Positions 1,826 through 54,233 of a stretch of DNA of 64,000 nucleotides are shown here, piece after piece. Below the pieces are notes generated by a model, which worked only from the letters and a program-made list of their open reading frames with translations, did not search any database and had not been told where the DNA came from. Within the stretch, counting starts at the first letter, position 1; each line of letters begins with the position of its first letter. The position numbers and the translations under genes were made by a program. This DNA is from an uncultured Bacteroidales bacterium (lineage in GTDB: Bacteria; Bacteroidota; Bacteroidia; Bacteroidales; VadinHA17): the NCBI GenBank assembly GCA_963844935.1, contig CAWJQH010000003.1, positions 172,430-236,429 of the forward strand, in the 5' to 3' direction.

Positions 1826-2131
1826 ATGAAAACTCTGCTCTCACATAGGAATTTCTTGCTTATTGTTTCCGGGGTCATTCTGCTCTCTTTTTCAGGTTGT
1901 GCTCAGTTTGAAGACGTTGGGCAATGTCTTACCGGCCATACTTATGGTTTCTTTGGTGGCTTATGGCATGGATTTATTGCCCCGTTTGATCTTATAGGCA
2001 TGCTTTTCAGTGATAACATCACGATGTATGCCCAGAATAACACCGGTGGCTTCTATGCACTCGGGTTCATTCTTGGCAGCGGTGGCTGGGGCTTCCTCGG
2101 AGGAAGGGGCATCAGGAAAGCCAGAAAATAA
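1826..2131 (+). CDS. small Gly/aromatic-rich lipoprotein or membrane protein, unknown function
   Basis: 101-aa ORF with a signal peptide and lipobox (LLSFSGC), followed by hydrophobic Gly-rich segments (GFFGGLWHGF, GFILGSGGWGFLGG). No family recognised. Confidence 0.5.
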   Translation: MKTLLSHRNFLLIVSGVILLSFSGCAQFEDVGQCLTGHTYGFFGGLWHGFIAPFDLIGMLFSDNITMYAQNNTGGFYALGFILGSGGWGFLGGRGIRKARK

Positions 2132-2449: not shown

Positions 2450-4276
2450 ATGAAGAACCAACTCAGGAGTGCAGCAACGGTAACCGGCAGGAACATGGCC
2501 GGTGCAAGAAGTCTCTGGCGGGCCAACGGCATGAAAGAAGAACACTTCGGTAAACCGGTCATTGCCATTGTCAACTCATTTTCCCAGTTCGTTCCGGGGC
2601 ATGTCCATCTGCACAGTATTGGTCAGGTCATTAAGGAGGAGATCGGGAAACATGGCCTTTTCGCAGCTGAATTCAATACAATAGCCATCGATGACGGAAT
2701 TGCGATGGGCCACGAAGGGATGCTCTATTCCTTACCCTCCAGGGAACTCATTGCCGACAGTGTCGAGTATGTGTGCAACGCCCACCGGGCAGATGCAATG
2801 ATATGTATCAGTAACTGCGACAAGATCACTCCCGGTATGCTGATGGCTGCCATGAGGCTGAACATACCGGCGGTTTTTGTTTCGGGAGGCCCGATGGAGG
2901 CCGGGAATCACAATAACAGGTCGCTTGACCTGATAGATGCGATGGTGTCTGCTGCCGACAGCACCGTGAGTGATTCAGACCTGAATGATATTGAAATGGC
3001 TGCCTGTCCTACCTGCGGGTCATGTTCAGGCATGTTCACGGCGAATTCAATGAATTGCCTGAACGAAGCGCTGGGCCTTGCACTTCCGGGCAATGGAACA
3101 ATAGTTGCCACCCACCGGAACCGCATGAGACTGTTTGAAAGAGCAGCGGGGCTGATTGTGGACCTGGCGAACAGATACTACTCAGAGGGTGATGACACAG
3201 TACTTCCAAGGTCAATTGCAACCAGGGAAGCCTTTAAAAACGCCATGTCGCTTGACATTGCAATGGGAGGATCGACAAACACCGTTCTTCACCTCCTGGC
3301 AATAGCGCATGAAGCCGGTGTTGATTTTTCAATGAAGGATATTGATGAACTTTCCCGGGAAGTCCCCACCATATGCAAAGTCTCCCCCAGTTCACATTAC
3401 CATATCCAGGATGTAAACCGTGCCGGCGGTATTTTTGCCATTCTTGGAGAATTGGAGCGAAACAATCTGATAGACAGCTCTGTAAGAAGGATAGACTATC
3501 CTACTCTTCATGAAGCAATTTCTGAATGGGATATTTCCGGAGATAATGCATTGCCCCTCGCATTTGATTACTGCAAAAGCGCCCCGGGAATGAAGAGAAG
3601 CCTTGAAATGGCTTCGCATGATACTCTTTACGACACGCTTGATACTGACCGGAAAAACGGATGCATAAGAAGTGTAAAATATCCTTATAACAAGGAAGGC
3701 GGCCTTGCTGTCCTTTACGGAAACATTGCGAAAAACGGCTGTATAGTCAAAACCGCAGGCATCGACCCTTCAATGTTTACATTTTCAGGCCATGCGGTGA
3801 TCTTCGAATCCCAGGAAGAAGCCGTGGAAGGAATACTGAATGATACTGTGGGCGCAGGAGAAGTTATCGTGATCAGGTACGAAGGTCCGAAAGGAGGGCC
3901 AGGTATGCAGGAGATGCTTTACCCTACATCATATCTGAAATCCAGGGGGCTTGACAGGAAATGTGCATTGATAACCGATGGCCGCTTTTCAGGAGGCACC
4001 TCGGGATTGTCTGTCGGTCATATCTCTCCGGAAGCAGCAGCAAAAGGAGGAATTGCAATTCTCAGGACAGGTGATCAGGTTGATATTGATATAGCAAACC
4101 GGAAGATAAATGTAAACCTTTCTGATAATGAGATCATTAAAAGGCATCAGGAGGAGGAGGCAAAGGGAGAAATGGCCTACAGGCCGAAAAACCGGCGGCG
4201 TGAAATACCATCTTCGCTGAAAGCTTATGCTGCAACGGTAAGTTCAGCTGACAGGGGGGCGGTGAGGATAATATGA
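2450..4276 (+). CDS. ilvD: dihydroxy-acid dehydratase
   Basis: [42 protein letters not shown] (Fe-S cysteines) and TDGRFSGGT. Track ORF starts at 2435; ATG 2450 (MKNQLRS) is preferred. Confidence 0.95.
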
Positions 4277-4315
4277 AGCATGGGGCATAGGGCAAGGAGC
4301 ATGGGGATTAAATCA

Positions 4316-4394
4316 GGCAATAGGCAGTAGAGGGCCGAGCGTTAAATCCCGACATGTTATGTCGGGATAGCGAAGGAGCCGGTTTGCAGGGGAG
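4316..4394. repeat. structured intergenic repeat, family 1, copy 1 (ilvD-ilvB spacer)
   Basis: The flanks GGCAATAGGCAGTAGAGGGCCGAG and TAGCGAAGGAGCCGGTTTGCAGGGGAG are nearly identical to 34768-34845. The central hairpin is a 9-bp stem with a 3-nt loop (4347-4355 / 4359-4367). Confidence 0.7.
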
Positions 4395-4454: not shown

Positions 4455-6194
4455 ATGAAGAAAAACAAGGAGTTAAATACAACAGTGGCGACTGGTAAGG
4501 ATCAGGAGCAGATTTCAGGAGCTGAGGCGCTTCTCAGGTGCCTTATCGAGGAAGGTGTGGATACTGTATTCGGTTACCCGGGAGGCGCCATCATGCCTGT
4601 CTATGACAAACTGCTTGATTATGAAGATAAGATCAGGCATATACTCACCCGTCACGAACAGGGAGCTGCACATGCAGCCCAGGCATATGCAATGGTTACC
4701 GGAAAACCCGGGGTCTGTTTCGCAACTTCCGGTCCCGGGGCAACCAACCTGGTAACGGGTATTGCCAATGCTTTCCTTGATTCAGTGCCTGTCGTTTTCA
4801 TCACTGCCCAGGTTGTATCAAACCTGATTGGTACTGACGCATTTCAGGAGACTGACATTCTTGGTGTTTCAATGCCTGTCACAAAATGGAACTGCCAGAT
4901 CAAAAGGCCGGAGGATCTGCCCGACACAATAGCAAAGGCATTCTACATTGCAAAGTCAGGCCGTCCCGGACCGGTGCTGGTTGACGTGGCCAAGGACGCC
5001 CAGATTGAAAAACTCAGTTTCAGGTACAGCAAATGTGAATACCTGAGAAGCTATAATCCCAGGATACCATTGCATACCAGGGAGATAGAGTCGGCAGCCA
5101 TTATGATCAACCATGCCGAGAAACCGTTAATTCTTGCCGGCCATGGTGTCCTGTTGTCGGGTGCCGAGAATGAACTAAAGGAACTGGCCGAGAAAGCCGG
5201 AATTCCTGTTGCCCTTACGCTGCTTGGACTCTCAGCCTTTCCCTACGGTCACAGACTGTATGCCGGGATGCTCGGCATGCACGGAAACCTCGGCCCGAAT
5301 GTTCTCACAAATGAGGCTGACCTGATTATTGCCATCGGAATGCGTTTTGATGACCGTGTGACAGGCAACCTGAAGAAATATGCAAAGAACGCAAGGATAA
5401 TACACATCGAGATAGATGAAGCAGAGATCAATAAGAATGTGCAGGTCGATCTTGAAATAAATAATGATGCCCGTGAAGTGCTGCGTCACCTGATACCGCT
5501 GGTGAAGGAAAATTCTTTTGCAAGATGGATAAGGGAATTCAGGATATGTGATAAAACAGAATATGATAAAGTCATCAGGCCCGAGACAGAACCGGAATCG
5601 GGAGAGATCAGAATGGGGGAAGTAGTACGCCTCGTGTCAGACCTGACCCACGGAGATGCAATAATTGTTACTGATGTCGGGCAAAACCAGATGTCTGCCG
5701 CCCGGTATTATAAATTCAAAAATCCAAACAGCCTGGTGACATCCGGCGGAATGGGAACAATGGGCTTCGGACTCCCGGCTTCTGTAGGCGCCAAGATCGG
5801 AAGACCTGACAAACAGGTTGTGGTTTTCCTTGGTGACGGCGGTTTCCAGATGACAATCCAGGAGCTTGGAACCATCCTTCAGTACCAGGTCCCGGTCAAG
5901 ATAATTATCCTGAATAACAGTTTCCTCGGGATGGTGAGACAGTGGCAGGATATGTTCTACAATAAAAGGTATGCCTCGACTGCCCTTGTCAATCCCGATT
6001 TCCTGAAGATTGCAGAGGGATTTGGGATTAGCTCAAAAAGAGTAACGGAAAGAAAGGATCTTGAAAAAAATCTGGCTGAGATGCTTGCGGCCGATGGGCC
6101 CTACCTGCTTGACGTAACAATAAGCAAGGAGGCAAATGTGCTGCCAATGGTTGAACCGGGTTCATCAGTCTCTGATGTAAGATTGACAAATTAA
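4455..6194 (+). CDS. ilvB: acetolactate synthase, large (catalytic) subunit
   Basis: ThDP-enzyme motifs [38 protein letters not shown] and LGDGGFQM; 579 aa. Confidence 0.93.
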
Positions 6195-6205
6195 ACTGCG
6201 AGAAT

Positions 6206-6766
6206 ATGAAAAACGAATATACCCTGTCACTGTTTACCGAGAATCACATCGGGATACTGAACCAGATAACAATAATCCTTACAAGGAGGCAGATAAACAT
6301 CGAGAGCATAACAGCCTCTGAATCTGCCGTCCCCGGTGTGCATCTGTGGACGCTTGTGGTTATTACATCTCCTGAAATGGTCAGAAAAGTGGCCAGGCAG
6401 ATGGAAAAGCTTGTTGATGTTCTGAAGGTCTTTGTGCACACTTCAGATGAGATAATCTACCAGGAAATCGCGCTGTTCAAGGTTGCCACCCGGGGATTGA
6501 TGTCGGGAAATATAATTGATCATATTGTCCGCGGACACCATGCCCGCATCCTGGAAGTCACTCCGGAATATATCATTGTCGAAAAAACGGGTCACAAATC
6601 AGAAATAGCCGACCTGCTTCGCCAGCTGGAACCTTACGGGGTCCTGCAGTTTGTCAGGTCAGGACGTGTGGCAATCACAAAACAGGTCAAGGAATTAAAT
6701 TCTTACCTGAAGGAAATGGATGAGGCAAAGCGCCCGGAACCGCAGGAAATAGAAATTGACAATTAA
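6206..6766 (+). CDS. ilvN: acetolactate synthase, small (regulatory) subunit
   Basis: N-terminal ACT domain (YTLSLFTENHIGILNQITIILTRRQINIESI). Starts 11 nt after ilvB; 186 aa. Confidence 0.88.
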   Translation: MKNEYTLSLFTENHIGILNQITIILTRRQINIESITASESAVPGVHLWTLVVITSPEMVRKVARQMEKLVDVLKVFVHTSDEIIYQEIALFKVATRGLMSGNIIDHIVRGHHARILEVTPEYIIVEKTGHKSEIADLLRQLEPYGVLQFVRSGRVAITKQVKELNSYLKEMDEAKRPEPQEIEIDN

Positions 6767-25629: not shown

Positions 25630-26994
25630 ATGGAAAAGATTACCAAAATTCTGTTAAGCGAAAACGAAATGCCCCGGCAGTGGTACAATATTGTTGCTGA
25701 TATGCCAAACAAGCCGTTGCCGCCGCTGAACCCCGCCACCGGTAAGCCGGTGGGCCCGGAAGATCTGTCGGTCATTTTTCCGATGGAGCTTATAAAACAG
25801 GAAGTATCGGCTGAGAGATACATTGATATCCCTGATGAGGTACTCGATCTGTACAGGACCTTTCGCCCCTCACCTCTTTTCCGGGCACGGAACCTTGAAA
25901 AGGCCCTGGGAACAAAGAGCAGGATATACTACAAATATGAGGGCGGTAATTATTCAGGCTCTCATAAGGCAAATACTGCCATCCCGCAGGCATATTACAA
26001 TAAAATGGAAGGCGTAAGGCGGATAACAACAGAGACAGGAGCCGGTCAGTGGGGAAGCGCAATGAGCTTCGCATGCAACCACTTCGGACTTGAACTGCTT
26101 GTATTCATGGTAAAAGTCAGTTACAATCAGAAACCCGGGCGCAAGCTCTTAATGAATACTTACGGTGCCAGGGTCGTTCCGTCGCCAAGCACAATGACCG
26201 CTGCCGGAAGGAGGGTGCTTGAACTCGATCCTGAGTCACCGGGAAGTCTTGGCATCGCCATTTCCGAAGCAATGGAGATTGCTGCACAGGATCCGTACAC
26301 AAAATACTCGCTCGGCAGTGTGCTTAACCATGTTATTCTTCATCAGACCATTATAGGTCAGGAGGCATTGCTCCAGATGGAAAAAACCGGTGACTACCCC
26401 GATGTGGTGATCGGATGCTTCGGCGGGGGATCAAATTTCTCCGGAATTGCATTTCCATTCCTGCGCGAAAACCTGAATAACGGGAAAAAGACTAGGCTTG
26501 TAGCTGTCGAACCTTCCTCCTGTCCCAAGCTGACAAAAGGAAAATTCACGTACGATTTCGGTGATCAGTCAGGCATGACTCCTCTATTGCCCATGTACAC
26601 GCTGGGTCATAATTTCATTCCGGACAAGATCCATGCGGGGGGTCTTCGTTATCATGGTGCCGGCGTCCTCGTCAGCCAGCTGCGCAAGGACGGATTTGTC
26701 GAGGCAAAAGCCAAGCAGCAGCGTGAATGCTTCGAAGGAGGTATTCTCTTCGCCAGAACGGAAGGTATCCTTCCTGCACCTGAATCGTCATATGCCATTG
26801 CCGGCGCTCTTGATGAAGCAAGGAGAGCGGACATTGAAGGTGTGTCAAAGACAATTCTTTTCAATCTCAGCGGCCACGGTCATTTTGACATCTCTGCCTA
26901 TGAGAAGTATTTCGAAGGCAACCTGCCTGACCATGAAACCACGGCAGAGGAGATAGAAAAGTCCCTTTCGGAGCTGAAACTACCTGTTACCTGA
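25630..26994 (+). CDS. trpB2: TrpB2-type tryptophan synthase beta-like PLP enzyme
   Basis: 454 aa with the N-terminal extension typical of TrpB2 (MPRQWYNIVADMPNKPLPPLNP), the GSHKANTA PLP-lysine motif, and GCFGGGSNFSG. No trpA or other trp genes are adjacent. Confidence 0.85.
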   Translation: MEKITKILLSENEMPRQWYNIVADMPNKPLPPLNPATGKPVGPEDLSVIFPMELIKQEVSAERYIDIPDEVLDLYRTFRPSPLFRARNLEKALGTKSRIYYKYEGGNYSGSHKANTAIPQAYYNKMEGVRRITTETGAGQWGSAMSFACNHFGLELLVFMVKVSYNQKPGRKLLMNTYGARVVPSPSTMTAAGRRVLELDPESPGSLGIAISEAMEIAAQDPYTKYSLGSVLNHVILHQTIIGQEALLQMEKTGDYPDVVIGCFGGGSNFSGIAFPFLRENLNNGKKTRLVAVEPSSCPKLTKGKFTYDFGDQSGMTPLLPMYTLGHNFIPDKIHAGGLRYHGAGVLVSQLRKDGFVEAKAKQQRECFEGGILFARTEGILPAPESSYAIAGALDEARRADIEGVSKTILFNLSGHGHFDISAYEKYFEGNLPDHETTAEEIEKSLSELKLPVT

Positions 26995-27014
26995 ACGGAC
27001 GGGTGAGTGATACA

Positions 27015-27048
27015 AGAAGAGAGGCATCATCGCTAATGCCTCTCTTCT
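27015..27048. terminator. 13-bp perfect hairpin between convergent trpB2 and nrdJ (no clear U-tract)
   Basis: AGAAGAGAGGCAT (27015-27027) pairs with ATGCCTCTCTTCT (27036-27048) across an 8-nt loop. It sits between two convergent genes. Confidence 0.45.
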
Positions 27049-27070
27049 CATTTGATAATGATTTAAAAGT

Positions 27071-27120
27071 TCCCCCTTGATAAGGGGGAGTATCCCGGCC
27101 ATAGGTCGGGAGGAGGGGGT
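27071..27120. repeat. structured intergenic repeat, family 2, single-arm copy
   Basis: Two hairpins, CCCCCTT-GAT-AAGGGGG (27072-27088) and CCCGGCC-ATA-GGTCGGG (27094-27110), followed by the purine tail AGGAGGGGG. It is collinear with 49871-49920. Confidence 0.65.
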
Positions 27121-27131
27121 TATAAAATCTG

Positions 27132-45948: not shown

Positions 45949-47091
45949 ATGGTAAACGAAGATATACAGGCACACACAGGTGAAGAACCTTCTGAACCTG
46001 CAATAAAATATAAAAGGGGCGCAAACAAGCTTGATGAATTCAACTGGCTTGCAGGTCTTCCGTACGACCCCCGGTACAATGAAGTAGTCGAAGTCCGGTT
46101 TAAGAATACCCGGAAGGGATTCTACCGCAACGTCAATGACCTGAGGCTTGAGGTGGGAGACCTGGTTGCCGTCGAAGCTTCTCCCGGCCATGATATCGGC
46201 CACGTATCCATGACCGGTTTCCTTGTCCTTGAACAGATAAAGAAGATGAAGGTCAAACCTGTCATCGAGGAGATGAAGAAGGTTTACAGGAAGGCAAGGA
46301 CTGTTGACCTGCAGAAGTGGGAGGAGGCGCGGAAGCAGGAGGTTCACACAATGCTCAGGTCAAGAAAAATTGCAGAGGACATCGGGCTCGCAATGAAGAT
46401 AGGCGATGTGGAGTACCAGGGAGACAAAACAAAAGCGATCTTCTACTATCTCGCCGACGAGAGGGTGGACTTCCGTCAGCTGATCAAACTTCTGGCAGAA
46501 GAGTTCCATATCCGTGTCGAGATGAGGCAGATAGGCGCCCGCCAGGAAGCGGGGCGCATCGGCGGCATTGGTACATGCGGACGTGAGCTCTGCTGCTCTA
46601 CCCATGTCACCAACTTCGTCTCGGTGACCACATCCCATGCCCGTTACCAGGATTTGTCACTGAACCCGCAGAAGCTGGCGGGACAGTGCGGGAAACTCAA
46701 GTGCTGCCTCAACTATGAACTTGACTGTTATATCGATGCGCAGAAGGATTTCCCCTCGAGAGAGATACCTCTTGAACTGGCTAACGGTACAGCCTGGTTC
46801 ATGAAAATGGAAGTACATACCGGCATCTACTGGTATTCGAGTGACCAGCGCATGGCTGTGAACCTGACTGCGGTGCCGGTTGCGAGAGTGCGCGAAATAA
46901 TACAGCTTAACAGGAAAGGCATAAAACCCGATAATCTGCTGGCCGGTGCAGGCGCCAACGCACCTGAAAAGGGCAATGACCTCCTGCTGCAGAACAGCGG
47001 TCTGACAAGGTTTGAGACTAAAAGCAACCCGCGCCAGCCGAGAGGAAGGCGCAGACCTTACAACAAGAAAAATGAGGGAACCCGGAAATAA
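45949..47091 (+). CDS. PSP1-domain protein (RicT/YaaT-like)
   Basis: PSP1 C-terminal domain with GRELCCSTH and GKLKCCLNYE Cys motifs. The conserved holB-PSP1-gldH order is seen in Bacteroidetes. Confidence 0.8.
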   Translation: MVNEDIQAHTGEEPSEPAIKYKRGANKLDEFNWLAGLPYDPRYNEVVEVRFKNTRKGFYRNVNDLRLEVGDLVAVEASPGHDIGHVSMTGFLVLEQIKKMKVKPVIEEMKKVYRKARTVDLQKWEEARKQEVHTMLRSRKIAEDIGLAMKIGDVEYQGDKTKAIFYYLADERVDFRQLIKLLAEEFHIRVEMRQIGARQEAGRIGGIGTCGRELCCSTHVTNFVSVTTSHARYQDLSLNPQKLAGQCGKLKCCLNYELDCYIDAQKDFPSREIPLELANGTAWFMKMEVHTGIYWYSSDQRMAVNLTAVPVARVREIIQLNRKGIKPDNLLAGAGANAPEKGNDLLLQNSGLTRFETKSNPRQPRGRRRPYNKKNEGTRK

Positions 47092-47551
47092 AATACTTGC
47101 TGTCAGTGCACTGATCATGCTCATCACCCTGTCATGCGACAGGGGTACCTACTACGCTGACAGTGTTAAAATGCAGGGCGATTCATGGAGCATGTACGAT
47201 CCATGCAAGTTTTCATGCCAGATCGATGACACGGTAAGTGTGTATAATTTTGACCTCTCAATCCGGACATCAACAGGATACCCGTACCGTAACCTGTACC
47301 TTTTTGTCGTTACTTCATTCCCTTCAGGAAACACGGTCACTGATACCGTACAGGCTATTCTCGCAAATGAAAAAGGCGACTGGCTCGGCAAGGGCGCGGG
47401 CGATCTCCGTGAGCTGACAATACCTTATAAATCGAATATTTACTTCCCCGAAAAAGGCGAATATCATTTTAAGGTGATACACGGAATGAGAGATACCGTT
47501 CTGAACGGGGTATATGACCTCGGCATGAGGATATCACTGAAGCAGAAGTAA
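47072..47551 (+). CDS. gldH: gliding motility lipoprotein GldH
   Basis: About 160 aa from ATG 47072; lipobox LITLSCD; family-like YPYRNLYLFV core. The track ORF from 47012 overlaps PSP1. Confidence 0.7.
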   Translation: MREPGNKILAVSALIMLITLSCDRGTYYADSVKMQGDSWSMYDPCKFSCQIDDTVSVYNFDLSIRTSTGYPYRNLYLFVVTSFPSGNTVTDTVQAILANEKGDWLGKGAGDLRELTIPYKSNIYFPEKGEYHFKVIHGMRDTVLNGVYDLGMRISLKQK

Positions 47552-47568
47552 TACAAATTATTCCGGTA

Positions 47569-48267
47569 TTGGGCAAGAACAAACTGGCACGGTGGGCTGA
47601 GATGAAAGGCTTTGACCATGTAATCGAGCCTTCGTTTGATGATGTTTTCGGACATGATTTCCACCTTAAGGGGAAATGGCACAGCGACTGGTTCGGAAAC
47701 AGTAATCCGATCGTTCTTGAGCTGGGATGCGGCAAGGGTGAATATACAGTAAGGCTTGCTGAGATCTCTCCGCAGAAAAATTTCATCGGCATTGACATCA
47801 AGGGTGCACGGATGTGGAAAGGTGCAAAAGAATCGCATTATATGAAACAACAGAATGCGACATTCCTCCGAACCAGGATTGAGCTCCTCGGATCGTTCTT
47901 TGCTGCCGGCGAGACAGATGAGATATGGCTCACCTTCCCTGACCCTCAACCGAAATGGAAAAGAGAGAAGAAGAGGCTGTCAGGCCCTGTCTTTCTGAAC
48001 CTCTACAGAAATTTCCTGAAAGACAACGGGATCGTGCACCTCAAGACCGACAGCAGGGAGCTGTATGATTACACCCTTTCCCTGGCGCAGACAAACAACC
48101 TTGAAATCATTACCTCTGTCACTGACCTGCACGGTCAGATGCCCGGCGATCCGCTGCTGTCGATCAGAACCCATTATGAGGAGATCTTCCTGAAACAGGG
48201 GATCCCTATCACTTACCTTGCATTCAGACTGCCAAATGAAAAGGAGATCATCAGTCCCGGACAATAA
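47569..48267 (+). CDS. trmB: tRNA (guanine-N7)-methyltransferase
   Basis: N-terminus MGKNKLARWAE (TTG start), the SAM site LELGCGKGEYT, and FPDPQPK. Confidence 0.88.
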   Translation: MGKNKLARWAEMKGFDHVIEPSFDDVFGHDFHLKGKWHSDWFGNSNPIVLELGCGKGEYTVRLAEISPQKNFIGIDIKGARMWKGAKESHYMKQQNATFLRTRIELLGSFFAAGETDEIWLTFPDPQPKWKREKKRLSGPVFLNLYRNFLKDNGIVHLKTDSRELYDYTLSLAQTNNLEIITSVTDLHGQMPGDPLLSIRTHYEEIFLKQGIPITYLAFRLPNEKEIISPGQ

Positions 48268-48592
48268 AAATGAGGGCTTCTTCAGCCGGGTGTACGATGT
48301 CACCCGCCTGATACCTTACGGAAGGATCACGTCATACGGTGCAATTGCCAGGTACCTCGGCACTGCCGGCTCTGCCAGGATGGTTGGCTGGGCGCTTAAC
48401 TCATCGCACACCCTTCCTGAATTTATTCCCGCACACCGTGTTGTCAACCGCAACGGAATGCTCACCGGCAAATTTCATTTCGGCAATTCATCAACGATGC
48501 AGCAACTGCTGGAAAACGAAGGATTTATTGTCAGGGATGACCGGGTCATTGACTTCAGCCAAAAATTCTGGGATCCGGCTGTTGAACTTTGA
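48236..48592 (+). CDS. alkyltransferase-like (ATL) protein: MGMT DNA-binding fold lacking the acceptor cysteine
   Basis: IPYGRITSYGAIARYLG helix-turn-helix. The active-site motif reads PAHRV instead of PCHRV, so Cys is replaced by Ala. Confidence 0.75.
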   Translation: MKRRSSVPDNKNEGFFSRVYDVTRLIPYGRITSYGAIARYLGTAGSARMVGWALNSSHTLPEFIPAHRVVNRNGMLTGKFHFGNSSTMQQLLENEGFIVRDDRVIDFSQKFWDPAVEL

Positions 48593-48649
48593 TACGGGAA
48601 GGATGTTCTGTATTAAACTGATCTGAGAAAAAGGATTAACAAATAAATT

Positions 48650-49750
48650 ATGCATACAAAACAACAAGTCCTTGAAGCGCTGAAAAAGGTTTCCCATCCG
48701 GAAAAGGGAAGTGATATCGTTACACTGGGCATCGTAAGCGATGTTACTGTGACGGAGGAAGGAATAAATATCCTGCTTACCCCCGAAAAATCTAACGATC
48801 CGTTCCTCTCGTCCATAAAGAGCAACTGCGTAAGGGCAGTAAAGGATGCACTAGGGCCCGATGCAGTGATCACATCGATAGATGTCAGGCCAAAAATAGT
48901 TGTGTCTAAAAAGAAAGAACCGAAGAGGGATGTTCTTCCGGGAGTAAAAAACATCATAGCCGTTTCATCGGGCAAGGGCGGCGTTGGCAAATCGACTGTG
49001 GCAGTGAACCTGGCTGTGGCACTGGCCCGCAAAGGTTATGCAACCGGTCTGCTCGATGCAGACATCTTCGGGCCATCGGTGCCCCGTATGTTCAATGCAG
49101 AACAATACAAGCCTGATGTTCACAGTGAGAACGGCAGTGACAGGATCATTCCGATGAAGAAATATGGTGTCAGCATTCTGTCAATCGGCTTTTTTGTCAA
49201 AGATTCCGAAGCGGTTATATGGAGAGGTCCCATGGCAAGCAGCTTTCTCAAGCAGCTAATCAACCAGGGCGACTGGGGTGAGCTTGACTATCTCATCTTT
49301 GACCTTCCTCCCGGTACCAGTGATATTCATCTGACGCTGGTGCAGGAGGTGCCCGTTACCGGTGCCCTGGTGGTTACCACACCTCAGGAGGTAGCTCTTG
49401 CCGATGCCCGGAAAGGCATAGCCATGTTCCGCAGTGAGGCTATCAATGTCCCGGTTCTGGGTCTGGTTGAAAATATGTCATTCTTTATAGCTCCCGAGCT
49501 GCCAGGAAGACGGTATTACATCTTCGGCAAGGAGGGCGGAAGCAGGCTTGCCGCAGAGGCCGGCGTTGAGCTTCTGGGACAGATCCCCATTGTGGAGAGC
49601 ATCTGTGACGGCGGCGATGCCGGTACCCCTGCCGCCCTGAGCGACAATGAGACAGGCCAGGCTTTCCTCAGGCTGGCGGAAACCGTCGTCAGGCAGGTTG
49701 AGAAACGCAATTCCGAACAGGCCCCTACAAAAAGAGTTGAGATGAAATAG
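48650..49750 (+). CDS. apbC: Mrp/ApbC/NBP35-family Fe-S cluster carrier ATPase
   Basis: N-terminal DUF59-like domain, deviant Walker A VSSGKGGVGKST, and a CxxC-type region (ESICDGGD variant); 366 aa. Confidence 0.88.
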   Translation: MHTKQQVLEALKKVSHPEKGSDIVTLGIVSDVTVTEEGINILLTPEKSNDPFLSSIKSNCVRAVKDALGPDAVITSIDVRPKIVVSKKKEPKRDVLPGVKNIIAVSSGKGGVGKSTVAVNLAVALARKGYATGLLDADIFGPSVPRMFNAEQYKPDVHSENGSDRIIPMKKYGVSILSIGFFVKDSEAVIWRGPMASSFLKQLINQGDWGELDYLIFDLPPGTSDIHLTLVQEVPVTGALVVTTPQEVALADARKGIAMFRSEAINVPVLGLVENMSFFIAPELPGRRYYIFGKEGGSRLAAEAGVELLGQIPIVESICDGGDAGTPAALSDNETGQAFLRLAETVVRQVEKRNSEQAPTKRVEMK

Positions 49751-49771
49751 GTCTCCCGTCGGCATAAAGCA

Positions 49772-49931
49772 GTCTCAAAAGTATATTTACCACCCCGTCC
49801 CGACCCTTCGGTCGGGGCACCCCTCCTTAAAAAAGGAGGGGAAATGTCTGAATTTAAATATTTTAACTTTCTCCTCCTTGATAAGGAGGAGTACTCCCGC
49901 AGAGCGGGAGGGAGGAGGTGACTTTTGAGAC
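49772..49931. repeat. ~160-bp composite palindromic element (family 2, two inverted arms, four local hairpins)
   Basis: The outer 11-bp inverted repeat is perfect: GTCTCAAAAGT (49772-49782) / ACTTTTGAGAC (49921-49931). The arms 49791-49841 and 49871-49920 are imperfect reverse complements of each other. Each arm carries two hairpins, and the spacer is 29 nt and AT-rich. Confidence 0.7.
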
Positions 49932-49950
49932 ACGTTTATCCTCTTTTTAG

Positions 49951-49958
49951 TACCTTTG
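49951..49958 (+). promoter_or_regulatory. -7 promoter motif TACCTTTG
   Basis: Exact TAnnTTTG match 48 nt upstream of the TTG start at 50007. Confidence 0.35.
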
Positions 49959-50006
49959 GATACTTTTAACTGCCCTTGGCAGTTATAGAGTATATACCAC
50001 TCTTTC

Positions 50007-52664
50007 TTGAGTTCACGGCACTCAGTATATTATGTCGCGATGACCCTGGTGCTCACCGCACTTATAACCGGTTGTTCTGTTGAGAAGAACACCGGGGCGA
50101 GCCGTTTTTACAACTCCCTCGTAGCAAAATACAACGTATGGTTCAACGGCAATGAAGCCTATAAGGCCGGCGTTGAAAAGATACAGCAGTCACACCGTGA
50201 TGATTACAGCGTTCTGATCCCTGTTTTTGAATACACCTCGGATGAATCTGTTGCGGCGGCTGCCTCAGACATGGAACGTGCCGCCCAGAAAGCATCGAAG
50301 GTTATTGCGCTCTACTCAATCACCGCCAAACCGAAAGAGAAGAGTAACAGGAGAGATGATGCCCGTGACGAGGAATTCTACAACCGCCGGGAATACAACG
50401 AGTGGGTGGACGATGCCTACCTTCTTCTTGCCAAAGCACAGTTCATGCTTAAAAACCTCCCGGCATCACGGTCCGCCTTTTCCTATACGGTAAGTATAGC
50501 CACAGACCCTGATCTTATTAGCGAAGCAAATATCTGGATGGCCAGGATACAAACTGAAGAGGGCAATTATTCAGAAGCATCACGCATACTGCAGGGTTTC
50601 AATGACATTGACGGCCTGCCGAAATCACTCAAGCCAATGTTCTACTCAACCATGGCTGATGTCGCCCTCAGGCAGAAACGCTACAATGATGCGGTCAGTC
50701 CCCTTACAATGGCCGTTGAGAACAGCACCAACAAGCATTTCAGGGTGCGCCTGACATACCTGCTGGCACAGGTGTGCAAAACAACCGGCGACAACGCTCT
50801 TTCCACACGTTATTTCCGGGATGTGATCAGGATGAACCCGGCTTATGAGCTTGAGTTCAATGCCGCCATTAACCTTGCCGGTGTAACTGATTTATCTCAC
50901 GGTGATGCCGAAGATCTGATAAAATCGCTTCGCAGGATGCTGCGTGACTTAAAGAACAAGGATTATCTTGATCAGATCTACTTCGCACTCGGTGAGCTCG
51001 AGATGCGGATGGGAAACACCGCTGAGGCCCTTGATCTCTGGATCCAGTCTGCCAGGAGCAGCACAGTGAACACCAGGCAGAGGGCAAGGGCATACCTGGC
51101 ACTCGGGGAATACTATTATGCACAGCCTGAATACATGACGGCATTTCTTTACTACGACACTGCCACCTACCTTATTGATGAACGTTTTCCCGACTATAAT
51201 CTTATCAGCCGCAGGACAAGTGACCTGGGTGAGTTTGCAGACTTCCACCGTGTGGTGATGACTGAGGACAGCCTTCGCAGGGTGGCCATGATGAGCAGTG
51301 CGGAACGTGATGCCCTGATTGCAGAAATGATCCGTGCTTATGAGCAGGAACAGACAAAGGCAGTGCAGGGTGATGGCAGCGAAAGGTACAATATGGGGCT
51401 TTATTACGAGAATGAGCAGCGTTCCGCCGGAGCCATATCTGCTGAAGGAGGATGGTATTTCTACAACCAGTCGGCGCTTACATTCGGCCGTACGGAGTTC
51501 AAACGCCGCTGGGGCGACAGGAGACTTGAGGATAACTGGCGGCGGTCGAACAAGGCACGCGCTGCATTCACTGCCCCCACCGCTGCCGAGAACGGGGAGG
51601 AACAACAGGCCGGCGACAGTACGGCAACGGCTCCTGAGCGGACAAAGGAATACTATCTCCGCAATCTCCCGCTTACTGATTCGCTTATGAGCCTCTCTGC
51701 AAGTAAAAGCGCCAACGCCTTGCTGGGTGAAGGAAAGATACTTGCCTCACGCCTTGCTGACACTCTTATGGCGGCGAAGTCTCTTGAAGAGGCTGCGGCA
51801 CGGGGTAACAGTGACAATATCAGGACTGAAGCTCTCTATGAGCTCTACAGGCTGCTCCGCAACTACGACCCGTCCCGGGCGGAGGTTTTCAGGGCAGAGC
51901 TTCTGTCATCATTCCCCAATTCAGAATACTCACTTATACTCTCCGACCCTGACTATGTCAGAAAACAGCTGGAGATGGCAACGAGGGCGAGGACAACATA
52001 TGAGGCCGCCTATGAAGCCTTCATGTCACAGAGTTACGTCGAGACTCAAAACATTTGCAGGGAAGCCGCCGGCCTGTTCCCGGGTGACGGTCTTTTGCCG
52101 AAATTCATGCTTCTTGACGCCATGGCCACCGGCGCTACGGACGGTGAAGTTGCCTACAAGGAAAAACTTGATTCCCTTACGGCAAAATATCCTGAAACTC
52201 CTGAGGGCATAAGAGCAGCAGAGATAACCGCATTCCTGAAAAGGGAGATACCTGAACTGCAGATTGCAGAAGATACCCGCATAGCTGAAGAACTTTATGA
52301 GCCAGATACAATCCAGCCGCATTTTGTCATTGTAGTGGCAGAAAACATACAGGCGAACATGAACCAGATGGTCTTCGATGTTATCAACTATAACCTCGAT
52401 AACTTTACCGACAAAAATTACCGTACTGAAGGAAAAGCGGTTGACAATGAGTATATCCTTATCACAGTCGGTCCTTTTGAAAATGCTGCAGAGGCAGGCA
52501 ATTGGCTCAGCTCATTCGATCCTGCTGCAAATATCAGGGGATCTGAAAATGCAGGTATTTCGCTCTATGCGATCAGCCGTGACAACCTGGAAAAACTCAC
52601 CACTGACAAGAATATTAACCGGTACCGGATCTTCTATGAGACTGCTTACAGCAGCAAAAAATGA
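50007..52664 (+). CDS. TPR-repeat lipoprotein, SprE/PorW-like (tentative)
   Basis: 885 aa; lipobox LITGCS; N-terminal KNTGASRFYNSLVAKYNVWFNGNEAY resembles my memory of the SprE/PorW N-terminus; multiple TPR-like repeats; next to porX. The ortholog assignment was not verified. Confidence 0.55.
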   Translation: MSSRHSVYYVAMTLVLTALITGCSVEKNTGASRFYNSLVAKYNVWFNGNEAYKAGVEKIQQSHRDDYSVLIPVFEYTSDESVAAAASDMERAAQKASKVIALYSITAKPKEKSNRRDDARDEEFYNRREYNEWVDDAYLLLAKAQFMLKNLPASRSAFSYTVSIATDPDLISEANIWMARIQTEEGNYSEASRILQGFNDIDGLPKSLKPMFYSTMADVALRQKRYNDAVSPLTMAVENSTNKHFRVRLTYLLAQVCKTTGDNALSTRYFRDVIRMNPAYELEFNAAINLAGVTDLSHGDAEDLIKSLRRMLRDLKNKDYLDQIYFALGELEMRMGNTAEALDLWIQSARSSTVNTRQRARAYLALGEYYYAQPEYMTAFLYYDTATYLIDERFPDYNLISRRTSDLGEFADFHRVVMTEDSLRRVAMMSSAERDALIAEMIRAYEQEQTKAVQGDGSERYNMGLYYENEQRSAGAISAEGGWYFYNQSALTFGRTEFKRRWGDRRLEDNWRRSNKARAAFTAPTAAENGEEQQAGDSTATAPERTKEYYLRNLPLTDSLMSLSASKSANALLGEGKILASRLADTLMAAKSLEEAAARGNSDNIRTEALYELYRLLRNYDPSRAEVFRAELLSSFPNSEYSLILSDPDYVRKQLEMATRARTTYEAAYEAFMSQSYVETQNICREAAGLFPGDGLLPKFMLLDAMATGATDGEVAYKEKLDSLTAKYPETPEGIRAAEITAFLKREIPELQIAEDTRIAEELYEPDTIQPHFVIVVAENIQANMNQMVFDVINYNLDNFTDKNYRTEGKAVDNEYILITVGPFENAAEAGNWLSSFDPAANIRGSENAGISLYAISRDNLEKLTTDKNINRYRIFYETAYSSKK

Positions 52665-52679
52665 AATGAGAGACTGACG

Positions 52680-54233
52680 ATGCGACAGGTAAGAATATTA
52701 TGGGTTGATGATGAGGTCGGGGTTCTGCGGTCTCATATTCTCTTTTTGCATGAGAAGGGTTTTGAAACCGATACATGTCCTTCCGGCAATGATGCCATAC
52801 GTATGGTGAAGGAAAAACCTTATGACATCATTTTTCTTGACGAGCATATGCCCGGGCTCAGCGGCATCGAGACACTGCGGCGCATCAAGGCGATCAAGCC
52901 ATCCATCCCGATAGTGATGATCACCAAGAGCGAGGAGGAGGAGATAATGGATGCTGCCATTGGATCACAGATAGCTGATTACCTGATCAAGCCCGTAAAG
53001 CCGCAGCAGATACTTCTCGCCCTGAAGCGTATCCTTGACATAGGAGATATAGTAACGCGGCAGACAACGACAATATTCAGGGAGGAGTTCGGTTCAATAT
53101 CGGATATGATATCTGCAGCCTCCACTTTTGAGCAGTGGTGCGAAGTGTACCGCAGGCTTGTCTTCTGGCAGGGTGAACTCATCAGGTCATCAGATCCCGG
53201 CATGAGGGAGGTTCTGCGCATGCAGGAGGCTGATGCCAACAGGGCTTTTGGAAAATACATTTCAAAAAACTATACAGGGTGGATGGCTTCCGATGCCGGT
53301 GACAAGCCGCTTCTTTCGCCGTCGGTGATGTCAAAACGCATATTCCCGCTCATCAAAAGCGGATCGTCACTCTTCATTATCATAATTGACAACATGCGCC
53401 TCGATCAGTGGCAGACGATATCGGCTGATCTCAGTCCTTTCCTGCGGAATGTTTCAGATGAAATTTATATGAGCATCCTTCCCACCGCAACGCAGTTTTC
53501 ACGTAACGCACTCTTCGCGGGACTGATGCCTGCGGCGATAGGTGACCTGATGCCGGAATACTGGATAAATGACACTGAGGATGAAGGCAAGAACCTCCAT
53601 GAGGAAAAACTGCTCGGCAAGCACCTGCAGAGAGCCGGCATCAACTGCAAATGGAGCTACAGCAAGATAAGCTCTGACGCGGAAGGCAAGACCCTTAACG
53701 ACAGGCTCCCGCAGCTTCTTACAAATGACCTGAACGTTCTTGTCTATAACTTTGTCGATATGCTCAGCCATGCCCGGACAGAAGTCGGCGTTCTGCGTGA
53801 CATGACCGGTGATGAGGCGTCATGGCTCTCATTCACACATTCATGGTTTATCCATTCACCTCTCTTTGAGCTTCTCAGGGCTGTGGCTGTAAAAGGATCA
53901 CGCGTGGTGATAACAACAGACCACGGTTCTGTCAGGGTCCAGAAACCTGTCAGGGTTGTAGGCGACAGGCAGACATCAATGAACCTGCGTTACAAGTCCG
54001 GAAAGAACCTTGACTACAATCCGCGTGAGGTATTTGAAATCACTGTTCCCTCAAAGGCAGGGTTGCCAATGACCAACCTCTCGTCCAAGTATATATTTGC
54101 CTGCGGAAATGATTTCCTGGTCTATCCGAATAATTTCAACCATATTGTGTCGTATTACCGTGATTCATTCCAGCACGGAGGGGTTTCGTTGCATGAGATG
54201 ATGCTTCCTCTCGCCTTTCTTGAGCCCGTATAA
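52680..54233 (+). CDS. porX: PorX-type response regulator (REC + PglZ/alkaline-phosphatase-like domain), T9SS regulator
   Basis: 517 aa; RILWVDDE..., IIFLDEHMPGLSG, ITKSEEEEIMDAAIGSQIADYLIKPV, and a PglZ core (IIIIDNMRLDQW, TTDHGS). This closely parallels P. gingivalis PorX as I recall it. Confidence 0.85.
   Translation: MRQVRILWVDDEVGVLRSHILFLHEKGFETDTCPSGNDAIRMVKEKPYDIIFLDEHMPGLSGIETLRRIKAIKPSIPIVMITKSEEEEIMDAAIGSQIADYLIKPVKPQQILLALKRILDIGDIVTRQTTTIFREEFGSISDMISAASTFEQWCEVYRRLVFWQGELIRSSDPGMREVLRMQEADANRAFGKYISKNYTGWMASDAGDKPLLSPSVMSKRIFPLIKSGSSLFIIIIDNMRLDQWQTISADLSPFLRNVSDEIYMSILPTATQFSRNALFAGLMPAAIGDLMPEYWINDTEDEGKNLHEEKLLGKHLQRAGINCKWSYSKISSDAEGKTLNDRLPQLLTNDLNVLVYNFVDMLSHARTEVGVLRDMTGDEASWLSFTHSWFIHSPLFELLRAVAVKGSRVVITTDHGSVRVQKPVRVVGDRQTSMNLRYKSGKNLDYNPREVFEITVPSKAGLPMTNLSSKYIFACGNDFLVYPNNFNHIVSYYRDSFQHGGVSLHEMMLPLAFLEPV

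Follow-up and report, generated by a model that had tools for sequence, protein, structure and literature searches.

Inverted triplex-motif units form a palindromic repeat, probably mobile, in a Bacteroidales genome and bracket DUF559 nuclease genes in other bacteria

What is the palindrome of about 160 bp that separates an ApbC/Mrp gene (mrp) from the PorW/SprE gene (porW) in an uncultured Bacteroidales bacterium? The element lies in a 64,000-nt stretch of contig CAWJQH010000003.1 (hereafter the window, meaning this whole stretch), and an original prediction had left open whether it was a miniature inverted-repeat transposable element (MITE), a bidirectional terminator, or a structured RNA. 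Here we show that the palindrome is a doublet of two inverted ~52-nt units, in each of which a purine tail mirrors the purine arm of a pyrimidine/purine hairpin, a feature that had been overlooked. In our view the composite is likely to be a mobile element of the non-autonomous kind, built from two triplex units in opposite orientation and comparable to REPINs, the doublets of repetitive extragenic palindromic (REP) sequences; it would fold as single-stranded DNA and is possibly mobilised in trans by a DUF559 protein.

A hairpin and a mirrored third stem in each unit

Three arms are present in the window, two in the doublet (units C and A) and one in a solo copy (unit B). Aligned in one orientation, they share five parts on one strand: a 9-nt pyrimidine stem (Y-stem), a 3–4-nt loop, a complementary 9-nt purine stem (R-stem), a connector consisting of TR and a G+C-rich hairpin, and a 9-nt tail of G and T (or A). 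The tail has no complement anywhere in the unit. Its bases, taken from 3' to 5', follow those of the R-stem from 5' to 3': G faces G, and A faces T or sometimes A, as in the pairs AAGGAGGGG/GGGGTGGTA (unit C), AAGGGGGAG/GGAGGGGGTT (unit B), and AAGGAGGAG/GAGGAGGTG (unit A). This mirror rule is the triplet code of an antiparallel purine-motif triple helix (G.G-C, T.A-T, and A.A-T) with the strand order Y-R-R'. Because the tail mirrors and covaries with the purine arm of the first hairpin, each unit can be read as a class II intrastrand triplex motif composed of Y-stem, R-stem, and mirrored third stem, in which the small connector hairpin takes the place of the second loop.

All parts of the palindrome named in the original prediction were confirmed in the sequence: the outer repeat GTCTCAAAAGT/ACTTTTGAGAC and the 29-nt AT-rich spacer at the coordinates of Table 1, the hairpins CCCGACC-CTTC-GGTCGGG (49799–49816) and CCCCTCCTT-AAAA-AAGGAGGGG (49820–49841) in the left arm, and CTCCTCCTT-GAT-AAGGAGGAG (49871–49891) and CCCGC-AGA-GCGGG (49896–49908) in the right arm; the single-arm relative is the solo unit B. 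A repeat search of the window returned identical inverted-repeat pairs, and folding of a 210-nt region gave −91.2 kcal/mol on the plus strand and −89.0 on the minus strand versus approximately −59.5 for shuffled sequences (z = −7.0 and −6.4, respectively; 0 of 200 shuffles equally good). A unit pattern built from the three copies matched three sites in the window and none in 100 shuffles, and a generic triplex-architecture detector run over the 64 kb found exactly the three units and nothing else. The 11-mer outer repeat alone was not significant in 64 kb (2 matches versus 1.2 expected), but it is nevertheless kept in element copies of other genomes, and a ACTTTTGAGAC-type 3' extension follows the unit tail in loci L015, L053, L082, L097, and L099. 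The “outer inverted repeat” is simply the 3' extension that trails unit tails in this subfamily.

An exact-pattern scan, with one genome per species, yielded at least 116 genome stretches, and 126 matches lie in those listed. Among 106 distinct copies ascertained by this pattern, which included part of the tail, the mirror rule held at 9/9 positions in 69 and at 8/9 in 35 (104/106 with at least 8/9), and variants of the stem were observed to change the tail in step (AAGGAGGGG/GGGGTGGTT, AAGGGGGAG/GAGGGGGTY, and AAGGAGGAG/GAGGTGGTT), a covariation of all three stems. Since the tail was partly in the search pattern, the mirror test was redone on 80 metagenomic loci ascertained by protein alone, each duplex being counted on both strands. 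A perfect 8/8 mirrored stem was found within 45 nt on the 3' side of 148 of the 334 perfect asymmetric pyrimidine/purine hairpins, as against 12–24 for a 5'-side or direct-repeat copy and 3 for shuffled flanks, and about 20 distinct stem sequences each had their own mirrored tail. The mirror relation is thus selected, not accidental. The connector folds with at least 4 bp in 117 of 118 units and uses 37 different closing stems; RNAalifold on a MAFFT alignment of the 118 sequences recovered hairpin 1 alone because the connector varies in length, and the connector was then judged sequence by sequence.

Two other ideas on the tail were discarded. An alternative-hairpin switch, in which the tail would form Watson-Crick pairs with the pyrimidine arm at the 5' end, has only 4–7 such pairs and is inconsistent between variants, while the mirror rule holds throughout. 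A leader that sequesters a Shine-Dalgarno sequence, or a small open reading frame (ORF) after the tail, was rejected since start codons are not consistently present and the host belongs to the Bacteroidota; the AGGAGG-rich tracts represent stems of the triplex motif rather than Shine-Dalgarno signals.

Intrastrand triplex repeats, named BoxC, PIT, or TM_ECO, have been known in E. coli since the 1990s, and we know of no function, mobility mechanism, or partner protein assigned to them; the BoxC/PIT element was reportedly also treated by Bachellier and by Hoyne and Maher in 2000. A survey of class II intrastrand triplex repeats in bacteria by Holder et al. (2015) focused on TM_ECO, the BoxC/PIT element, which follows the pattern CCCTCNCCC N3-6 GGGNGAGGG N3 GGGNGAGGG and has 23 intergenic copies in MG1655, some of them in inverted pairs (PMC4666352). 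According to circular dichroism (CD) and nuclear magnetic resonance (NMR), the TM_ECO single strand forms a stable triplex; the repeat is associated with local genome instability, and the authors explicitly report no transposase or integrase nearby (PMC4666352). Since their ITxF search limited loops to 1–6 nt, with stems of 6–15 nt (PMC4666352), hairpin-interrupted units would escape it.

All three window units carry a Y-stem of 9 nt, within the 6–15 nt of that class, followed by its purine complement on the same strand and by a mirrored third stem with no more than one mismatch (Table 1). Loop 1 is 3–4 nt long, whereas loop 2, at 20–23 nt, exceeds the 1–6 nt of the class and forms a hairpin; in DUF559-adjacent relatives, described below, loop 2 ranges from 1 to 45 nt, the shortest (1–5 nt) being BoxC-like. 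The units read CCCCTCCTT..AAGGAGGGG..GGGGTGGTA and variants and do not match the TM_ECO sequence, true TM_ECO being seen only in the E. coli locus L117. Because both the TM_ECO sequence pattern and its short second loop are lacking, the window element is not a TM_ECO member; it is of the same kind as BoxC/PIT/TM_ECO but of a different family. Both are of class II (Y-R-R, purine-motif) with three 9-nt stems on one strand; both are intergenic and multi-copy, single or in inverted (“palindromic”) pairs, highly conserved in sequence, and variable in locus between strains. They differ in stem sequence (CCCCTCCTT/AAGGAGGGG/GGGGTGGTT and variants versus CCCTCNCCC/GGGNGAGGG/GGGNGAGGG), with heavier use of T.A-T triplets in the window family; in the second loop, a conserved 15–25-nt hairpin versus 3 nt; and in their hosts, which are Bacteroidota, Ignavibacteria, Acidobacteriota, Planctomycetota, the candidate phyla radiation (CPR), and others for the window family versus Proteobacteria for TM_ECO. 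The view that the element is not of a described family therefore holds in part: neither Rfam nor the literature searched yielded this sequence family, whose stem sequences as text strings met unrelated primers only, but its kind, the intrastrand triplex repeat, was already described. What appears to be new is the family with its interrupting hairpin, the range of phyla that it occupies, and its link with DUF559.

Insertion polymorphism and copies elsewhere

The comparison of the orthologous mrp–sprE spacer proposed in the original prediction was carried out in four relatives (L198–L201; Mrp 94, 86, 84, and 84% identical), and the doublet is missing from all four, in which the spacer is 125–148 nt long and both CCTCTTTTT and the TACCTTTG motif upstream of porW are kept. 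The empty site of the closest relative (L198) contains the small hairpin TAAAGCA-tataggac-TGCTTTA followed by CCTCTTTTT. The window reads ATAAAGCA[doublet]ACGTTTAT at this split hairpin; therefore, the doublet landed in the loop of a small host hairpin. Likewise, the spacer between the trpB-like gene and nrdJ is 77–82 nt in relatives L202–L204 (TrpB-like protein 97–98% and 92% identical) versus 137 nt in the window, and the gap coincides with unit B. Both the doublet and the solo unit are thus recent insertions, the corresponding spacers being empty in close relatives.

The entire doublet, spacer included, recurs at ~95% identity in L053 and L015, unrelated loci of another Bacteroidales genome, so that the element is not unique to the mrp–porW locus. 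The similarity runs from GTCTCAAAAGT to ACTTTTGAGACAC and the flanks are unrelated, for which reason L053 was rejected as an orthologue of the window locus. Together with the empty sites, these copies indicate that single units insert alone and that doublets propagate as wholes. The MITE-like option of the original prediction is supported: the element is discrete and multi-copy, has conserved ends at unrelated loci, and is absent from the four orthologous spacers, and the solo copy is an insertion too. Some genes of Acidobacteriota (Pyrinomonadaceae and relatives) contain 162-nt (+)(−) doublets of the unit family in frame (54 codons), one AMP-binding/PP-binding/acyltransferase gene twice and the valyl-tRNA synthetase (ValRS) gene as well. 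The doublets add a nearly identical peptide each time (SPPYEGGV..NHPVPI.NIGTPLLRK.GS), and the Pfam AMP-binding match extends across one of the insertions.

The genome stretches that match the unit pattern fall into at least 8 phyla. Hosts among the matches listed include many Bacteroidota orders, Ignavibacteria, Acidobacteriota, Pirellulales, Marinimicrobia, Nitrospinota, Gamma- and Betaproteobacteria, and the CPR groups Doudnabacteria, Saccharibacteria, and Microgenomates. In the same matches, most units lie between genes, preferentially at gene 3' ends (27 convergent versus 9 divergent spacers), and in co-directional spacers 23 are in sense and 22 in antisense orientation, which argues against a strand-specific role at the RNA level. 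Carriage by phages or plasmids was rejected, as the pattern has no match in 2.9 million viral contigs and the element no blastn match in phage and plasmid records. Same-strand copies 0.3–2 kb apart at some loci brought integron attC sites to mind, which were dismissed for lack of an R'/R'' core (GTTRRRY). On one rumen Bacteroidaceae contig, a DUF559 gene is flanked on either side by tandem arrays of (−)(+) doublets that repeat every 108 nt.

Could the doublet have been selected to separate mrp from porW, as a strong insulator or as a strong terminator of transcription in both directions? Its hairpins are very stable on both strands, members of the family are enriched at gene 3' ends as counted above, and the doublet was inserted into a terminator-like hairpin with CCTCTTTTT after it. 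On the other hand, no intrinsic terminator, that is, a G+C-rich stem-loop followed by a T-run, is present on either strand at 49600–50100; in four relatives this gene pair lacks the element; the units are not biased in orientation; copies stand in frame inside essential genes; and the related PIT/BoxC has neither promoter nor terminator activity, as summarised from Maher's work (PMC4666352). This explanation, put forward in the original prediction, is not supported and in our judgement very improbable. Any local effect of the doublet on transcription is probably an incidental by-product.

Upstream of porW, CCTCTTTTT, TACCTTTG, and a palindrome TAACTGCC-CTT-GGCAGTTA followed by TAGAGTATA are found in 5 of the 5 genomes compared; this block (49940–49990 in the window) is probably the porW promoter or leader region, untouched by the insertion. 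The order gldH - trmB - (DNA_binding_1/Ogt-like) - mrp - porW is common to the window (45949–54233) and relatives L198–L201, and porX directly follows porW in the window. Just 3' of the trpB-like gene lies a terminator-like hairpin AGAGAGGCAT..ATGCCTCTCT followed by TCTCATTT (27013–27047), which is kept in relatives, and unit B is inserted ~20 nt past it.

DUF559 nuclease genes bracketed by units

DUF559 is a very common bacterial domain without assigned function. Among the matches listed, an ORF of 110–125 aa with this domain (Pfam PF04480, E = 6.9e-25; also DUF559 by NCBIfam) lies within a few hundred nt of a unit in 9 of 116 pattern loci. An alignment of six unit-adjacent DUF559 ORFs was searched as bait against metagenome contigs and returned the 80 loci mentioned above. 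A triplex unit was observed within 300 nt of the gene in 71 of them (63 upstream and 57 downstream), and the unit density was 185 in 43.7 kb near the gene versus 11 in 120 kb farther off. In the usual layout, (+)unit-gene-(−)unit, the (+) unit stops short of the first ATG by a median of 30 nt, and the (−) unit begins a median of 3 nt past the stop codon, often overlapping it. The two units often differ in sequence type, and many of the genes are flanked by whole (−)(+) doublets like that of the window; in L120, the gene has CTCCTCCT upstream and CCCCTCCT downstream, a pair that the window doublet also carries. Among PDB entries, the DUF559 profile hits 3HRL (E = 1.6e-27) and, with a weak match, the homing endonuclease 3R3P of a mobile intron, and residues E-x-D-G-x-x-H...D are invariant in the six-ORF alignment. 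Vsr, DUF559, and EDxHD homing endonucleases have been grouped as one family (PMC3424549; PMC9403480). Genes of this DUF559 subfamily, with a predicted Vsr/EDxHD-type nuclease fold, are almost always tightly bracketed by units. On the Marinimicrobia contig CALBFA010000066.1 (L035 and L062), two 94%-similar DUF559 genes stand ~4 kb apart, each with the same (+) unit 74 nt upstream and with reverse units lacking the connector hairpin downstream, and further repeat copies lie between them.

A (+) unit so close to start codons would also suit a leader, and two hairpins are kept across phyla with compensatory changes, as expected if the unit were a structured RNA, such as a small RNA, a riboswitch-like leader, or an mRNA-stabilising 3' element, with the purine tail taking part in an RNA tertiary structure. 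This proposal, likewise from the original prediction, is not supported. Rfam at its gathering threshold gave no match in the whole window or in 15 related loci, and at E up to 10 only chance-level microRNA matches. Sense and antisense are equally frequent, units occur on either strand of a doublet and inside ORFs, and the tail is the mirror of the purine arm, not its Watson-Crick complement; the covariation follows the purine-motif triplet code, and triplexes of that motif reportedly do not arise in RNA (PMC4666352). We give a structured RNA almost no weight.

E. coli offers a check in a model organism. In the stretch of MG1655 examined (L117), ycjD is the only DUF559 gene; it ends in a TM-like half motif, and a canonical TM_ECO, recognised by eye against the published pattern, lies ~170 nt downstream, after a duplicated fragment of the ycjD 3' end. 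The triplex detector misses this copy because its Y-stem carries a non-pyrimidine base. By our own arithmetic from 23 copies in 4.64 Mb, the chance that one pre-chosen gene has a TM_ECO within 200 nt is ~0.002. The gene is present in 3,378 of 5,426 complete E. coli genomes (62%). When ycjD together with its BoxC was used as query in an evenly spread sample of 60 E. coli chromosomes, further BoxC places numbered 10–25 (median 16) in the 37 genomes with ycjD and 1–12 (median 4) in the 23 without it (Mann-Whitney p = 1.6e-9, with relatedness ignored). This suggests that BoxC number tracks the presence of ycjD, in the same direction as the metagenomic result. Thus BoxC/TM_ECO resembles the window family also in that a DUF559 gene adjoins one copy and copy number follows this gene, although published TM_ECO work reports no associated mobility gene. 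No paper linking DUF559 or ycjD to BoxC or triplex repeats was found in the literature searched.

The main rival explanation takes the association the other way round: the repeats would be older and spread by another route, namely replication slippage or template switching at the fold, gene conversion, or a host-beneficial replication or recombination signal, and DUF559 would be a free-standing homing endonuclease gene that inserts into them, so that bracketing reflects target preference and not mobilisation. In its favour, DUF559 groups with EDxHD homing endonucleases (PMC3424549, PMC9403480), the genes are usually flanked by whole (−)(+) doublets as though inserted between existing repeats, TM_ECO is tied to local genome instability without any mobility gene (PMC4666352), and insertion sequence (IS) elements that target REPs are a reported precedent (PMC1525189). 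However, the (+) unit at the start and the (−) unit over the stop take very tight and consistent positions and are often of different types, and therefore look like the defined left and right ends of one element. Gene-less (+)(−) doublets occur as discrete 162-nt insertions, as expected of deletion derivatives, and BoxC numbers are higher where ycjD is present. We therefore hold homing into pre-existing repeats to be unlikely, though it deserves more attention than any other alternative.

Table 1 Positions of the units, their parts, and related features. Coordinates are those of the window unless a locus is named.
Feature	Position	Strand	Remarks
Whole doublet	49772-49931	.	two inverted triplex units, head to head, tails outward, plus outer 11-nt inverted repeat
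Left outer inverted repeat GTCTCAAAAGT	49772-49782	+	complement of 3' extension ACTTTTGAGAC after unit tails in this Bacteroidales subfamily
Unit C, CCCCTCCTT type	49788-49843	-	read on minus strand; also found by generic triplex detector
Unit C, Y-stem CCCCTCCTT	49841-49833	-	
Unit C, loop	49832-49829	-	
Unit C, R-stem AAGGAGGGG	49828-49820	-	
Unit C, connector hairpin	49817-49799	-	
Unit C, third stem GGGGTGGTA	49796-49788	-	mirror of R-stem 9/9
AT-rich spacer, 29 nt	49842-49870	.	49844-49870 lies between units C and A; kept with doublet in other genomes
Unit A, CTCCTCCTT type	49871-49920	+	also found by generic triplex detector
Unit A, Y-stem	49871-49879	+	
Unit A, loop GAT	49880-49882	+	
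Unit A, R-stem AAGGAGGAG	49883-49891	+	
Unit A, connector hairpin CTCCCGC-AGA-GCGGGAG	49894-49910	+	
Unit A, third stem GAGGAGGTG	49912-49920	+	mirror of R-stem 8/9
Right outer inverted repeat ACTTTTGAGAC	49921-49931	+	3' extension of unit A
Solo unit B	27070-27121	+	insertion between convergent trpB-like and nrdJ genes; found by generic detector
Unit B, Y-stem TTCCCCCTT	27070-27078	+	followed by loop GAT
Unit B, R-stem AAGGGGGAG	27082-27090	+	
Unit B, connector hairpin	27093-27111	+	
Unit B, third stem GAGGGGGTT	27113-27121	+	mirror of R-stem 9/9
Host hairpin, left half ATAAAGCA	49764-49771	+	split by doublet; partner 49932-49939; from inverted-repeat search and empty site
Host hairpin, right half ACGTTTAT	49932-49939	+	then conserved CCTCTTTTT and conserved, promoter-like TACCTTTG (49951-49958), upstream of porW
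ApbC/Mrp gene	48650-49750		left flank of doublet
PorW/SprE gene	50007-52664		right flank of doublet; PorX next
trpB-like gene (P0121)	25630-26994		
In-frame doublet copies	L006:286-447 and 2224-2385; L061:~6190-6350		L061: second copy upstream in same ORF
Tandem (-)(+) arrays	L096:6930-7240; L071:1240-1400, 1830-2119		same rumen Bacteroidaceae contig
E. coli MG1655 1347000-1355000 (L117), ycjD	L117:4408-4761	-	
Duplicated ycjD 3' fragment	L117:~4300-4365		
TM_ECO	L117:~4203-4240		

A candidate triplex-ended mobile element

In the mobile-element reading that we prefer, the unit strand would become single-stranded DNA, in which the first two stems pair into a hairpin and the third stem lies antiparallel to the purine stem in its major groove, where G.G-C, T.A-T, and A.A-T triplets build a class II intrastrand triplex. 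Elsewhere in the genome, a DUF559 gene would encode the nuclease that recognises the folded unit and moves units and doublets in trans, much as RAYT transposases are presumed to act on REPs and REPINs. At the window locus, the element landed in the loop of the small terminator-like hairpin just after mrp, upstream of the promoter-like motif of porW.

This scheme has parallels in, and departs from, several known systems. Like REPs and REPINs, the units are small repeats with internal structure, are found either singly or in inverted doublets that can fold into one long hairpin, and lie mostly between genes near gene 3' ends, with a candidate mobilising gene bracketed by inverted repeats. Unlike REPs, they have a third, mirror-image stem and a sequence conserved across phyla instead of species-specific, and no GTAG or CGTC tag, as found at the end of the 20–40-nt REP palindrome, is present at the unit ends in the 118-sequence alignment. 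The flanked gene encodes a DUF559 protein with a Vsr/EDxHD (PD-(D/E)XK-like) nuclease fold and not a Y1 transposase with the HUH fold of RAYT, although the layout is analogous. With MITEs the doublet shares its small size (160 bp), terminal inverted repeats (an 11/11-nt outer repeat plus the inverted units), AT-rich centre, multiple copies (L015, L053, and L082), and sites that are empty in orthologous positions (L198–L201 for the doublet, L202–L204 for the solo unit); it differs in that there is no clear target-site duplication, no related element with a DDE transposase, and that half-elements insert alone. Rickettsia palindromic elements (RPEs) resemble the Acidobacteriota relatives as ~160-nt palindromic in-frame insertions, valS included, with the same peptide each time, but their sequences are unrelated and both window copies are intergenic; to our knowledge, neither a triplex nor an associated nuclease has been described for RPEs. 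EDxHD/Vsr-like homing endonucleases such as I-Bth0305I (PDB 3R3P) share the fold and the E-x-D...H...D motif with the unit-bracketed DUF559 proteins. However, enzymes of that type reside in group I introns or inteins and home their own gene, whereas the DUF559 gene stands free between structured repeats that spread without it.

Several points weigh against the mobile-element reading. Triplex formation in this family is argued from covariation and from the analogy with TM_ECO, for which CD and NMR data exist (PMC4666352). The transposase-like role of DUF559 is putative, and the association could equally mean gene homing into repeats. The order of the window doublet, (−)(+) with tails outward, is the reverse of the (+)gene(−) order expected to give rise to it by simple internal deletion. 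A target-site duplication is not evident at the doublet, and the solo unit has a possible imperfect one only (TTTAAAA/TTATAAAA). The 64-kb window contains no DUF559 gene, and the bracketing result is valid for the baited subfamily only, because the bait alignment came from genes adjoining units. Finally, the correlation between ycjD and BoxC is confounded by phylogroup; B2 strains such as Nissle, for example, have few BoxC and no ycjD.

More tentatively, DUF559 proteins in general, including YcjD, may be nucleases specific for ssDNA folded into an intrastrand triplex, which mobilise a pan-bacterial class of triplex-ended elements in gene-carrying, solo, doublet, and in-frame forms; we would not bet on so broad a claim, but it merits serious consideration. 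If it is true, these elements would be moved, by transposition or homing, through a system that uses none of the DDE, HUH, serine, or tyrosine enzymes, and the origin of the BoxC/PIT repeats would be explained. The agent that moves triplex repeats and the role of DUF559 can now both be tested in a model organism. Units and doublets of the family insert as discrete pieces, even in frame in essential genes, and in genome annotation AGGAGG-rich palindromes in the spacers of Bacteroidota should be taken for selfish repeats, not for regulatory signals.

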